Source of the DNA: Podarcis gaigeae
Taxonomy: Eukaryota
Length of the DNA stretch: 64,000 bases
Assembly (NCBI GenBank): GCA_964106915.2
Contig: OZ066923.1
Reading direction: 5' to 3' (one strand)
Shown here: piece by piece, positions 6,101 through 48,903 of the stretch
Position numbering within the stretch: the stretch's first letter is position 1
How the letters are laid out: every line of letters begins with the position of its first letter
The notes under the pieces: generated by a model
The model's input: the letters and a program-made list of their open reading frames with translations, nothing else
Databases searched by the model: none
What the model was told of the DNA's origin: nothing
Made by a program: the position numbers and the translations under genes

Positions 6101-6482
6101 ATTATAGCATATGTATCCATGTTTGTTAACTGATGTGGTTAAACAATTAGATTGAGTTTTACCACACATGAAAAACTTAAAAGAAATCCTTATTTCATGA
6201 TTAATAGCCTTTGGACTATAATGTAACTTAAATAGAAAACTATCTTTAGAAAGATTTTTAATAGACCAATCTTTGTCTGAATGGAATAGACCAGGGGAGA
6301 AAACTCCCATGATTAACTTCTCTTAAGATGGTATTGCTGTGTGATCAGTTTTTTGCCATTGTTTTAAGCAACTGCGTTTTCTAAAATAATTAAATATATG
6401 GTGAAATATATTCAAATAAAACCACTTCTTTGAAAAATAGCTTGCCACACTTAGTTACAGAAAAAGTAGAAACTCATCTTAC

Positions 6483-7515
6483 CTATAAATAAATGGTGCT
6501 ACTGTGGCCGTATTTGGGTGACTGTATTGCTGTTGCTGAGGAAGTTGCACAATACTGCTTCCTGGTGCTTGCCCACTAGTTGCAGCAATGGAAAGAGCAG
6601 CAGACGAACTAGGGGTAAGAGCCGTACTAGATTCCTTTCCTTCAGAAGAGGGAAGACCAGAAGGAGTGTATGCTTTCTCATTACCTTGCGATTTTGCTGT
6701 TGACTGGGGTTGGTTCCCCTTTGCACTCCTCAATTTTTCCGCCTCTTTACTTCCTGAACATGCCGGTGAAGTACTTTGCTTTGATGTCGGTACTTTTGAT
6801 CCAGGTTTTGGTATACCACTAGATGAAGGTATTAGACTTTCCTTCTTGGCTGATGCAGCCTTGTTCCCCTTGGGGATCAGGCTCGCAATTTTTGAGGTCT
6901 TTTTTGCAGGTGTCTCTGTGGCCTGGTCCTTCTCTTCCTTCACCGTCTTCTCAGTGCAAACTTTGTTTTTGTCCCTGCTCTTTTCCTCTTTGTCCTTTGG
7001 CTGTAGCAAAGACTTTTTATTGCTGAGATTTTTGCTTCCAGCTTTTGGAGGGGTTAGTTTAGGTGATATTTTAGGGCTGCTGCTGCTGGTGGAGCCACCA
7101 CTGTTGAGACCACCGCCGAAGCCGTCCATTTCGCCACAATCTAAAAAGGCTTCTTCGTCTCTCCCGCTGTCACTGGGACCCGAACTGGATGACAAGGGAG
7201 GCCGCAAAACAGTCCTAGCGTTAACTAACTTGAATTTCTCTAACATGGATTTCTGCCCAGATGAAGGAGTTTTGGGCCCTTCAGAAAGGGGTGGCTTAAG
7301 CCTATCTGAAGGTGGCGTAGGAGAGGTTGCGGGACTGGGCTGCTTGACAGACAGCATGGTAGAGGTGGCACTGTGTTTGACATTCATGGATTTGCTGCGC
7401 CAAGGCTTGCTGGCACTTGGAGAGGGGATGGCAGAGACCGGCTGCTGCCCAGTGCTGGTGGGATGCTGTACATTTCCATTCATGCCTGCAGATGGATGAG
7501 GACCTTTGGGTGATT
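6483..7515 (-). CDS. NAV3: NAV3 large coding exon (exon 8 equivalent), Ser/Pro/Lys-rich region with SxIP EB-binding motifs
   Basis: 1033 nt inside ORF 6479..7690, running (E)SPKGPHPSAGMNGN...KPWRSKSMNVKHSATSTML...SMLEKFKLVNAR...SKIASLIPKG...SGIPKPG...HPNTATVAPFIYR. CCAG acceptor (7516-7517), AG|GTAAG donor (6478-6482), phase 1 to 2. Confidence 0.97.
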
Positions 7516-10500
7516 CTGGTTTTGAAAGAGAAAAACACGAGGGCATTAAAATTGCAGAGCTCCCCAAACTATGCATTCCAAATGATGATGATGGATGATG
7601 ATGATATAAATTTGTATACTGCCCTATGCCTGCAGGTCTCAGGGAAGTTCTAACATAAAAACACACAATACATAATAAAAACAAAAACAATCCAATAATC
7701 TTTCAATTAGTTGCACAATTGAAAGCACTGTGGGAACTGAGCCTTCTAAAACATGTTCCCATTGACCTAGTTTAAATACGTAAGCCTACCCTCTTGTCGT
7801 TTCTCCAAACTTGTCAGAAACTTAAGTACAAAAATACCTTTTGATTGCTTAAATTATTTTCCTCACAAATCATGCATTAAAATTGCTGTTTTATGCTCAG
7901 CAAGAAGCGTTTTGGATTGGAGGAAGCTTCAGCCGCCCACGTATTAACAGGAGCTCCAGATTACAAAAGGATATGGCACTGGGCTGGTGGGTAACAGGAA
8001 GAGGAACATGAATCTGTAATTATTTCCTTAAAAAAATAAATGGATGAAACTAACAGCCTTGTCCTAGAAGCCACTGTGCTAGTGATAAAGTGTATAACTG
8101 CATGCTGCAAACGGATTCAGAATATTGGCTTGGAACAGAAACCTAGGGTGATAACAGTGAGAAGGATAACAGGAGGAATGAATCAAGATCTGAAATAATA
8201 TTCTTATTGTGACATTCTAGAGGCCCTTTTGGCCACTACAGAGTCACCAAGGTCAACACAAGCCTATGTATCTGATTTAACAGGATTGAAAGTGACAGAC
8301 AGCACAGTAGGATAGGTCTGCCCCACTTGCCTCATGTAGGGTCCCCTCTAGCTATGTCGGCACCAGCCATTTCCACCTGCACAGTCACATCCATCAAATC
8401 GGGGGTAAATTAAGGCTGACACTGACTGCTCTCTGGCCTGGTTAGATTAAGGTTACCAATACCTGGTATAAAAAATCCACCCCTGTGACCTTAACAGCAG
8501 CATGGAGGTATGGCATTCAGCAGGTGCATTTTATCTCGGGGCTTTAGCTCTATGACATGACTACTAAAGACATAAGGGCTCCTATGGGCAACATGAAGGA
8601 AATATCAGAAAGGTCAGGTGTAGGATTTTGTATGCAAAAGGAGCTACACCAGAAATATTTGTAAGATAGAGGATAAGGGGAATAAATGAAGCTGAAGCAA
8701 GCACAGTATGGAAGTAAAGGAATAGCAGCGATGAAACCATTCATACAAGGGTGGTGTTGCTGTTTTCAGTGGTTTACCCAACAAATATATTGGTGGAATT
8801 GAATCTCAGTAATAAAAATAGGACAGGGCTAGAAATTACCTGAGCAGATGGTATCACTACAAATTAAATAAAGGGAACAATTGAATTGAATCAGAACAAG
8901 ATTGAAATTTCCACAGGCCTCAAGCTTGAAAAGGATTGGGATAATTTAACTCCCATGTTTCTTTTTAATACTGATCATGTCAAAAAGCTTCAAGACTGAA
9001 GTGCTTAATAATACTAGGGATGCTTGAGAAATTAGTTTTCTGTGAATTCAGATGTCACATGACCTGATCTCCACCATGTGGACTGTTGCGTAGATTGGAA
9101 TGTAATGTTGCTCTCTGCTCAAAAATCATGCCAACATGCATTTGACCATGCACACTTCAGAATAAAATATGTTTAGAATTCCAGACACTGAGATACAGTA
9201 TGCATTTATCTACATATTTTGTCATGATATACGTGTTATAAGCGTGTGTGCAAATACAGATTTTTGTGCAGATTATTTTAAAGCGTTATCAGATTTATGT
9301 AGAAATGGTGCAAAGAAGACATAAGTGAACACATAAATTATTGACAGTTCTACGTACAGGAAAACATAGGGCGTTCAATGGTGTTGCTAAGATGACAGTA
9401 ACACTCCTGTCAGCAGAACAGGGAGGGAAGTAATTTGCATTGGTACCAGTGGCAGCTTCTCTCCCAGTGCAAACCAAACCTTTGGGTGAGGACAGATTTT
9501 CTGTAGCAGTGTGCAAGGAGTTAAAAAGAAACCCTACCCGGCTCATCATAGCCCTGATCCTGATCACCCCCCATTGCTGCTATTTAAAGTAGAAAAAAAT
9601 AACTACAAAAGGCAAAACTATACATTTATTGTTTCCTATGTGAACGTAATTTGGTTTGGAATAAACCAAGCTAATTTGGAAAACAAAGCAAAGATTTGGG
9701 GAAAGGAAGTGTTAAATAGTGATTACTCCATAGAAAACCACCAGTTATGTTTGCCCAACCACTGTACATAATTTAATTATTTAGATCACTTTTCCAGTTA
9801 GCTAAAAAGGATTTATAGCATGGATTTATGCTATTTAGTTTCACAGTATGTCAAAGAAAATACTCTTTCTGTATATGTAGCTAATGGTTTCAATTTGGAG
9901 CCCGTGACACAAATGGAAAAGCAAGCCTGAGGATCCAATAAAATAATCTGAGAATAATAGTTTGAAAAGAAATTGTAGCAGCATTTTTTTGTCCTGAAAG
10001 CAGAGATTATGGAACATCCTGCTTTTACACATTAAATCATATTTGTATATGGCTTAGCGAATCAGTGAGTAGCTTCACCAAGAACCTACCAGGACTATCA
10101 GTTTAGTCTTCAAAATATTAGACTTGCATAGAGGGGCAGGAGTGTGCATTCGAGGAAACTCCATCCTCAATTCCCCAGCACCACAAACGTGATAAGACAT
10201 TCATGCCTCATCAGGATTTTCAGTTGTATGGAGGCTTCTAAGCATCTTCCGTCAAACACACACAGAAGCTTCTCTCAATTTTTAAATTCAATGCACAAAG
10301 CTCTGAGAGAAGCCCTCGCTGAAGGGGGAAATTAGGGCAGTGCTTATATTTGAAACCATTTTTTAGGATCCACTTTATTCAGGAAAATGTTTTCTTTTTC
10401 AGGTTCAGCAACTCTGCAGATTGGGTTATGGAAAATGTCTGCAGGTTGCTCTAATTTAATAGCCAAGTGTCCCTGTAGTGCTGCAATATGGTATTCTAAA

Positions 10501-36179: not shown

Positions 36180-36311
36180 NNNNNNNNNNNNNNNNNNNNN
36201 NNNNNNNNNNNNNNNNNNNNNNNNNNNNNNNNNNNNNNNNNNNNNNNNNNNNNNNNNNNNNNNNNNNNNNNNNNNNNNNNNNNNNNNNNNNNNNNNNNNN
36301 NNNNNNNNNNN
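36180..36311. other. Assembly gap (132 N)
   Basis: Run of N. Confidence 0.99.
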
Positions 36312-46760: not shown

Positions 46761-47201
46761 TATTTAGCAGTCTTGCACTCCTTGGATGGAGGCGTTGACC
46801 CACCCAGAGATCATTTTTGTCCCTTGGAAGCTCTGGGACCACAGGGATGTCACATAAGCAAGGTATCATGTGAAAGTATGTGGAAGTAGTAATCTGAACC
46901 AACACACACTGGCTGATGGCCCTAAGAGCTGCCTGGATTAGGTCAGATTACTCTTAGGCTGCAATCTTATACACACTGACCTGGGAATGTCTCACTGAAG
47001 CTGACTTCTGAGCAGACATGTACAGGAATTAGAAAGTTATGGTCTTCCTTCTTGCCCCTTCCTTACTGCCCCGTATCTCTATTTCTCAGGCATTTCTTCA
47101 TTTTTAATGTAAGCTGCCTAGTGCCATATAGGAATGAACTTAACTGCAATATAAAAAAATTCCTTCCAGTAGCACCTTAAAGACCAACTAAGTTAGTTCT
47201 A

Positions 47202-47240
47202 GGTATGAGCTTTCGTGTGCATGCACACTTCTTCAGATAC
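47202..47240 (-). ncRNA. Minimal type I hammerhead ribozyme motif (minus-strand copy, sense to NAV3 pre-mRNA)
   Basis: The minus strand reads GTAT-CTGAAGA-A-GTGTGCATGCACAC-GAAA-GCTC-ATACC, with an intact core, a perfectly palindromic stem II and a 4-bp stem I. Confidence 0.7.
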
Positions 47241-47246
47241 TTCTTT

Positions 47247-47286
47247 GGTATCTGAAGAAGTGTCCATGCACACGAAAGCTCATACC
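47247..47286 (+). ncRNA. Minimal type I hammerhead ribozyme motif (plus-strand copy)
   Basis: GGTAT-CTGAAGA-A-GTGTCCATGCACAC-GAAA-GC-TC-ATACC. Stem I is GGTAT/ATACC, followed by core CUGANGA, a stem II hairpin, GAAA, palindromic AGCU in place of stem III, and a CUC cleavage triplet. Confidence 0.75.
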
Positions 47287-48406
47287 TAGAACTAACTTAG
47301 TTGGTCTTTAAGTTGCTACTGGAAGGAATTTTTTTATTTTGACTATGGCAGACCAACACGGCTACCTATCTGTAACTTAACTGCAATGTTTATGTAATAA
47401 GATTCTGAATTTATCGTTTCACTATTTGTTTTTGTTTCTTAATGGGCATACTGGCAGAAACACACAAAAGTTATTAGCTCAACTTGAATTAGCCGTCTTT
47501 CTCTCAAAGATGATCAACACCTGCTGCTTAGTTTTGCCCAATCAAGCAGCTTGTCAATGAAGAGTTAATTTTAGCATCCGCAGCTTCCTGTGTCACACTG
47601 AATGTTAGCAGCCTCCTTTCTCAACTATCTAGCAGAGATATGATTAGCAGCTAAAACATACAGTGTCATTATGCCGCTAAGTAATTAGAACAATCCTATA
47701 GGAGTCTACAAATGTCATTAAAAAAACAAACAAGTGGGGAGAAAATTAAATGAGAGATCTGAGGAAAGGGAGATTCCATGTGTTATTTCCACAAAATTCT
47801 ACAATGAATTCTCTTTATAGCCACAGACACTGCTAATCAATAAAGAGTACAAAATATAAGTCCCACTTCTGGATGGGAAACTAATTGCCTTGGGATATAT
47901 CCTGACTTTCAAGTACTTGCTGGTTTTAGCTCAGCCTCTTCCAGCAGAAGGTTACACATGTCTCAAGAGATACTTCTCAGACTATTTAACTGGACTTCAT
48001 TGTGGACAAGCAGAGAGGCTATTTATATTCATTAAGAGTTGGCAAACGCCTTATTTCAAACCAGTAGTCCAGACACAAAGACTCCACTCAAAATTGGTTC
48101 TGCTATTTTCTGTCTTTAAAGCAGCTTTGGAATTGAAATTATCCATATAAATCTGAGTAACATAGAAATAAGTTGAAATAAATACATTCATAATTAATCT
48201 AATAGTCAATGCTAATGGTGTTTTTCAGCTCCCTTATACCCCGAACTTGCTTCTATCCAAAGATAACAAACCAAGACTATGTTTTCAAAAAGCCAAAGGA
48301 AATATACATAGCATAATCAACATAAAGCAAAATGAATAGCCAGTAGTACACAATCCAGTAAAGCTCAGATGTGACATCATAACACAAAAATCTGGTTTAT
48401 TCTTAC

Positions 48407-48459
48407 CATTTGAGACTGGCTTCGAGGACAGCCATTGATATCTTCAACCTTTTCATTTG
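48407..48459 (-). CDS. NAV3: NAV3 coding exon (exon 3 equivalent), CH domain
   Basis: 53 nt encoding (A)NEKVEDINGCPRSQSQM. CAG acceptor, GTAAG donor (48402-48406), phase 1 to 0. Too short for the ORF track. Confidence 0.96.
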
Positions 48460-48903
48460 CTGAAGGAAAACAGTGAGGGTTTAAAAAAAAAAGTCAGAGT
48501 AAACTATGTGACCGCAAAGAAGAAAGTAAACAGACATACAAGAATTTTGTAGATCCTGAACTTTGCTCTAAGCACACTGAAACCCTACACAGTAACAATC
48601 TGCCTTGTTAACAGCAGTTCCTTCCCCATGCACAAATCATGCAAATGGGAAGTGCAAAAGGAGGTTGCTACCAATTCTCCAGCCCCTGCCAAATGACTGC
48701 TGACATGAAATCGTCCACAATTGTCTTTGTGGGATCAGGATACAGTTTCAAGGCATCTCAGAAAGTATAAACTACTCCAGCTAATAAAATGCACACATTG
48801 GAGACATATGGCTTAATGAAGCATTCATTTTAAACAATGCCAAGTGTGTGAAACAGTTTTCTGGCCCTTAAAAGAATGGTGGAGCAGACACAAACATATC
48901 TAT

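Follow-up and report, generated by a model that had tools for sequence, protein, structure and literature searches.

Penelope-like elements (PLEs) integrate as insertion units in which an inverted, 5'-truncated copy, a tail of 30 to 40 bp at one end only and a target-site duplication (TSD) are combined (PMC8557442, Fig. 2; PMC3846280). For the rotifer elements in PMC3846280, self-priming on an antisense template was proposed, and the origin of the inverted copies is called open there. Hammerhead motifs have been described in Neptune elements and in reptiles, including dual motifs on opposite strands that are 100 to 700 bp apart, and a single minimal motif gave no cleavage and dimers little (PMC4209133). 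For the anole Poseidon element PAc, in vitro work documented that both target strands are extended and that the reverse transcriptase (RT) starts at two internal sites, and the later integration steps were named in 2024 as not yet validated (PMC11167929); no discussion of the inverted geometry was found in the accessible text of PMC11167929. The inverted copy, the tail and the opposite-strand hammerheads are thus already in print. A search of titles and abstracts, with most subscription journals outside its coverage, yielded no printed twin-priming model for PLEs.

The current study concerns an insert of 223 nt in a window of 64,000 nt, i.e., the whole stretch of DNA that was analysed. With a probability of roughly 0.7, we regard it as a species-restricted PLE stub in which both ends of the cut target copied the same RNA in a head-to-head arrangement, and whose hammerheads are passengers and, by prediction, locked in the resulting hairpin. 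Element positions are counted from +1, the first G of hammerhead stem I, and the features of the locus are as follows.

47137..47150, no strand: target-site duplication, left copy; its 3' end is the would-be top-strand primer
47151..47240, minus strand: inverted copy of the 5' end of the element RNA without the tail, +1 to +90; outer end within the T-tract
47203..47240, minus strand: minimal type I hammerhead with intact family sequence, sense relative to host transcription; cleavage predicted 3' of the C at 47207
47241..47247, plus strand: junction filler of 7 nt, non-parental (the parent has other bases there)
47247..47286, plus strand: minimal type I hammerhead in antisense orientation relative to host transcription; cleavage predicted 3' of C47281
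47248..47373, plus strand: tail-bearing copy of the element's 5' RNA end, +1 to +126; 95% identical to the full-length copy L235
47338..47373, plus strand: tail of 36 nt, present on one arm only; start of the parental open reading frame (ORF)
47374..47387, no strand: target-site duplication, right copy; it opens with AACT, 4 nt identical to those with which the element itself continues
48408..48460, minus strand: host neuron-navigator exon (ANEKVEDINGCPRSQSQ); nearest upstream exon, given as context

The insert is bounded by two 14-nt direct repeats that are 100% identical, and its two inverted arms (47151-47240 and 47248-47337; 90 nt each, 7-nt spacer) differ only at 47175/47313 and 47224/47264. 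The ATG of the parental ORF (47345-47347) and the nine first codons are contained in the tail, and with its inverted 5' copy, 36-nt one-ended tail and 14-bp duplication the insert displays the features of the published insertion unit. In organisms B, C, E, F and G, single contigs lead from 47136 directly to 47374 with one copy of the 14-mer, and both insert junctions are present in two samples of organism A; six organisms were judged, organism D being left out for want of a single bridging contig. Because the empty sites of the relatives retain one 14-mer copy, the repeat is a true target duplication, and a true insertion confined to one of the six judged organisms follows from the five empty sites. 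Coordinates and empty sites, which an earlier note made from the sequence alone had proposed to seek in relatives, hence bear out its description of a 223-nt insert with a 14-bp TSD, 90-nt arms and one hammerhead per strand. Its assessment of the insert as probably young, drawn from the two mismatches, calls for qualification, since a divergence of 2/90 equals the family mean (137/7,778 sites). Elsewhere in the window, read depth rises about 15- to 20-fold at 46950-47010 in all eight runs and the relatives have 9-nt insertions there; this is a short piece of another repeat. Positions 36180-36311 consist of 132 N.

The hammerhead core (CUGAAGA...GAAAGCUC) is found once per strand, at 47252-47281 on the plus and at 47236-47207 on the minus strand, and three other loose matches to the core pattern occur within the window. 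Stem I comprises 5 bp on the plus and 4 bp on the minus strand, the AGCU palindrome is present in both motifs, and in the plus-strand motif stem II is altered by G>C at 47264. Core boxes, a helix I of 4 to 5 bp, an extra base 5' of helix II and palindromic positions 15.1-16.1 identify both as minimal type I motifs, and the motif class and the cut positions C47281 and 47207 named before appear to be right as predictions. The Rfam hammerhead models, recommended there as a check, gave no match at E values up to 10 with either 1,601 nt or one arm alone, as expected because the motif lacks stem III. The predicted fold of the insert RNA has an energy of -160.4 kcal/mol (z = -23; as good in 0 of 200 shuffles), and the AGCU duplex of a dimer is predicted at only -2.5 kcal/mol. 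Whichever strand is transcribed, the ribozyme arm is preceded on its 5' side by the antisense arm, which contradicts the former view that the minus copy is made before its complementary arm. Since the antisense arm is transcribed first, the hammerhead is predicted never to fold; in simulated folds of the growing minus-strand transcript, the core had an unpaired probability of 0.00 at 9/9 lengths tested, in agreement with the earlier idea that the hairpin sequesters the ribozyme. Both hammerheads are accordingly modelled as locked in the hairpin, with the minus motif completely base-paired with its counterpart arm. The intronic duplex predicted for the host pre-mRNA could possibly be edited by ADAR or diced, and no sign of selection was seen. 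Among 145 arms, the ribozyme core differs at 14/1,425 sites vs. 56/5,667 in the flanks, mostly by CpG decay at G12. A core no more conserved than its flanks had been named as evidence against a ribozyme, yet equal decay is what dead, unselected copies are expected to show and is uninformative on the active parent.

With respect to the host gene, minus-strand neuron-navigator exons including a CH domain (best PDB match, the NAV2 CH domain, E 1e-19) and further exons were detected, so that its orientation had been given correctly. We take the paralogue to be NAV3, and the exon number is likewise presumed. The distance from the splice donor at 48408 to the insert is 1,021 nt. A 407-codon open frame on the minus strand at 6479-7702, which is rich in serine, proline and lysine and had no match in a Pfam search, is presumably a large exon of the same gene. 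The sequence of the insert gives no sign of a locus-specific function.

The parent family was traced by a protein search, which recovered four open frames of 921 to 966 codons (L233-L236; G000:C17, C32, C29); two other candidates (L181, L182) were dropped, as they are not full-length. L235 is complete in the order pLTR-ORF-pLTR, with direct, hammerhead-bearing pLTRs of 331 nt (98.8% identical) flanking a 910-aa ORF whose ATG lies in the tail. The window sequence 47248-47377 matches the 5' pLTR and ORF start of L235 with 95% identity over 130 nt, which supports the Penelope-type origin proposed before and derives the insert from the pLTR plus the ORF start. In a Pfam search, the ORF of L235 matched RVT_1 at 438-586 (E 9.5e-12) and GIY-YIG at 808-856 (E 7.8e-6), both above the curated cut-offs, and no RNase H family. 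A single ORF with an RT followed by a C-terminal GIY-YIG endonuclease (EN) defines the parent as an EN+ PLE. The motifs DKG, YLRYIDD, CNKPRCQLC and YIG are present in L235, DKG and CNKPRCQLC each in 4/4 long ORFs, the ORF start motif MADQHGYL is found in the four long ORFs, and the translations contain a CCHH finger (KCQQC before YIGQTG and two later histidines). The definitions of DKG, the CCHH finger and the CX2-5CxxC linker were taken from PMC8557442, where the linker that separates RT from EN is assigned to Neptune and Nematis and described as absent in Penelope and Poseidon. The parent is accordingly designated "Neptune-type" by this one character, which Nematis shares, and the nearest named proteins are unclassified turtle proteins with about 60 to 69% identity. 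The family may have been recently active, given its four open frames and the near-identical pLTRs of L235.

In the 1.51-Gb genome, 8,207 exact matches to the tail and 11,151 to the 34-nt core were counted (control, 0), and at least 668 loci have cores back to back within 10 nt. An unselected set was formed by the first 90 of 100 listed tail matches (L071-L160), which were chosen by tail and position only and mapped on a natural copy reaching to -620; it includes one ORF piece and one possible older neighbour, and 5 end values are bounded by the reference. The first 30 loci, which are biased by the query junction, were left out of the counts of arms, 5' ends and core decay and included in the comparison of arm alleles. 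An automatic rule assigned an inverted arm to 69/90 copies, and 15/90 have the same build as the window copy, so that the locus is not special but an ordinary stub of a high-copy PLE. The outer ends of the inverted arms lie at +84..+104 in 58/69. Tailed arms end at +122..+134 in 62 copies with a duplication of at least 12 nt, a range that is partly forced by the pattern and the search range, and only 288 copies continue exactly to +139. Duplications are 12 or 13 nt long in 47 of the 77 found. Inner ends fall within -10..+5 in 34/90 tailed and 34/69 inverted arms, with a density of 6.4 per nt at -6..+4 vs. 0.17 at -100..-11 and 0.66 at +6..+75. Sister copies have junction fillers that are similar to that of the window copy yet different.

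Several sister copies show additional rearrangements. Recurrent deletions of about 7 to 12 nt between two similar short words at +53 to +68 (L046, L047, L053, L056, L058) affect one arm only in two-armed copies and may mark a site of RT slippage. At L036:1066-1560, the inverted arm fuses an N-terminal part of the ORF to pLTR +54, an internal jump that is unique among the copies. Tandem units of a pLTR end plus 40 to 80 nt of ORF (L161, L162, L163, L165, L167, L168, L175, L177, L180), in which the next copy restarts at -3..+1, look like RT jumps from the 5' end of one RNA to an internal site of another. They yield same-strand hammerhead pairs with a distance of about 170 to 210 nt; such pairs could form dimers and are reminiscent of nascent retrozymes.

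The arm statistics and the shared alleles provide moderately strong, if indirect, support for one RNA copied from both target ends. The sequence of events would be as follows: transcription from the pLTR promoter would give a capped RNA starting at -3 to +1, i.e., the 5' edge of stem I; the endonuclease would make a staggered cut of 12 to 14 nt, judging from the duplications; and priming would occur near +126 to +134 from one 3' end and within the U-tract, near +89 to +97, from the other. The tail would then correspond to the interval between the two priming sites. In the absence of an RNase H, both copies could reach the 5' end of the RNA, the second displacing the first, an early stop of the tail-primed copy would leave arms that abut without overlap, and the two 3' ends would be joined with a short filler. 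The filler of the window copy (47241..47247) may be a short re-copy of element +11..+7 with one extra base and a cap-like G. Start site, cap and twin priming are in each case deduced from the ends of genomic copies. As to the machinery, we lean towards a dimeric protein that uses a single capped sense RNA with two fixed priming sites, one for each target end, and often copies the cap. If true, this would explain the tail, the head-to-head repeat and the common 5' end together and replace the published idea of antisense self-priming, and long, near-perfect hairpins, several thousand of them in the genome, would be available as a potential input to element silencing.

At position +47, 96 arm pairs comprise 51 A/A, 41 G/G and 4 mixed cases vs. 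47.5 mixed pairs expected from random RNAs, a concordance that is possibly also to be expected if one source locus is active at a time. It would also be explained by a single cDNA that reaches the 5' end of the RNA, folds back, copies itself to the T-tract and joins the second target end. This snap-back is the best of the alternatives, though a rather unlikely one. It is compatible with the 28/69 copies whose arms have an equal 5' reach within 8 nt, allows a shorter inverted arm (14/69) and suits 4 copies that are centred on the stem II palindrome (+13). In 27/69, however, the inverted arm extends beyond the tailed arm on the 5' side by more than 8 nt and holds up to several hundred nt of sequence that the tailed arm lacks, and it is therefore not a copy of the integrated tailed arm. 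Loss of the centre is known from long palindromes, and under the snap-back the asymmetric copies could possibly reflect later deletions there; in the 6/69 copies whose tailed arm ends at +70 or later, such a deletion must have halted right where the other arm begins. These abutting arms are the pattern of L1 twin priming, in which the second target strand primes internally and an inverted 5' part comes to lie inside one duplication. Among the first 50 listed tight loci (spacers of 10 nt or less only), inspected by eye, 31 have at most 2 unpaired centre bases and 6 have none, and centres of 0 to 2 nt are too tight for a snap-back loop. Asymmetric reach, abutting arms and tight centres thus argue against one cDNA folding back, as does the extension of both target strands reported for PAc (PMC11167929). 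A G>T change at +66, found on one arm only in 6/6 two-armed variant loci, was dropped as evidence of independent copying because its 10 genome-wide matches are about the neutral expectation for an arm total above 10,000 and the change is not confined to one type of arm.

For the position of the inversion point, the RNA start appears to be a better explanation than the guidance by ribozyme structure that the earlier note had suggested. Full-length copies have a TATATAG box upstream of stem I, followed by about 25 nt and then TCAGT, and the first T of the box lies 30 nt before the A at -3. This spacing fits a polymerase II start, and TATATAG is one base off the consensus. Among 124 distinct stem I starts (L031-L180), 99 have at most 4 parental bases upstream. 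A G precedes 29/40 ends at +1, where no parental base is kept, and at -1, a position occupied by T in the parent, G is found in 2,345 copies genome-wide and A or C in 1,237. In other retrotransposons, an extra G of this kind results from copying of the cap. For 11/29 of these G's, microhomology with the CAG end of the partner arm is a potential source, and a one-base extension of stem I could be another. The simple cap account fails to explain the ends at -2, of which only 2/36 have an extra G; a T precedes 31/36 of them, where the parent has A in 100/100 listed, and many of these ends may reflect a partner arm ending at -3. A spliced 5' exon of the kind known in D. virilis, ending here at the TTTCAG that precedes stem I and resembles an acceptor, was rejected, as the upstream bases share no exon sequence. 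The promoter mapped in a fly element is internal and TATA-less (PMC2377424), and the type of promoter therefore differs among families.

That stem I instead stalls or redirects the RT and thereby sets the inversion point is improbable. Ends pile up at its edge, and TWGG accounts for 524/2,345 genome-wide; of the first 100 of these listed, 75 have TTGG, which is complementary to the usual extension of stem I, and the TTGG share is perhaps twice that expected from base composition. Against such guidance, identical 5' ends about 30 nt after the TATA-like box are found in copies without inversion and at tandem junctions, only 4/159 ends lie at the cut site (+34..+36), and the RT would presumably meet the 3' strand of stem I first and unwind it before +1. 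The extension of stem I as the source of the upstream bases was discarded, because the added bases do not track the +40 allele: T at +40 occurs in 2/20 TAGG vs. 0/20 TTGG copies (p = 0.49), one of the two being an alignment artefact, and the window copy is discordant in combining T at +40 with TTGG. In view of the TTGG excess, a minor route via stem I remains conceivable.

Self-priming on an antisense template, as proposed for the rotifer elements, was published for exactly this head-to-head geometry (PMC3846280), but it predicts neither the extra G nor the abutting arms nor ends just past a TATA-like box in sense orientation, and the template in vitro is sense RNA (PMC11167929); we consider it very improbable here. 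Equally hard to credit is a hairpin that is itself the mobile unit or is retained because it serves the host as an editing substrate, a small-RNA source or a cleavage switch in NAV3: the duplex is very stable, lies in sense in an intron of a neuronal gene and has both junctions in two samples of organism A, but sister copies vary in arm length and filler and are thus not MITE-like, the exact junction matches no other copy among 40 scored, five relatives have the empty site, core and flanks decay alike, and the Rfam miRNA matches on the insert are hairpin artefacts that all remain below the gathering scores.

The locus itself matters little, being one of at least 668 near-identical structures. 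The family bears modestly on the origin of the head-to-head inverted copies of PLEs, a question left open in print (PMC3846280), and the intact 910-aa ORFs in the genome offer a Neptune-type protein for tests of the mechanism.

Compared with known systems, L1 twin priming is an analogue outside the PLEs; unlike in L1, most copies here overlap by the whole 90 nt with both arms reaching the 5' end of the RNA, and the priming sites are fixed and not set by target homology. Non-LTR retrozymes are likewise small, non-coding, hammerhead-bearing and PLE-derived (PMC7229834; 10.64898/2026.07.22.740005), but they are described as same-strand tandem repeats, whereas the insert is inverted with one motif per strand and no tandem array was found at the locus. 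As in PAc (PMC11167929), two RT start sites would bracket the tail, and the PAc hammerhead is reported to be dispensable for insertion; in contrast to PAc, the parent has the CX2-5CxxC linker, which is absent from Poseidon, and its ATG lies about 60 nt after the ribozyme and not inside it. The hammerheads resemble those of the PLEs in PMC4209133 in their helix I of 4 to 5 bp, a long helix II preceded by an additional base, G10.1-C11.1, palindromic 15.2-16.2 and lack of helix III, but differ from the dual motifs described there in being 7 nt apart and mutually pairing. The closest match is provided by the units of EN+ PLEs, e.g., Pen2a_Av, with their head-to-head inverted pLTR copy, one-arm tail, target duplication, ORF start inside pLTR plus tail and TATA-like and Inr-like motifs in the pLTR; the insert is a minimal form of 223 nt that lacks the ORF body, and duplications in the family measure 12 to 14 bp in contrast to the 8 to 10 bp given for those units. 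Unlike the rotifer set of PMC3846280, the family is represented by thousands of copies, which permit statistics of the ends.
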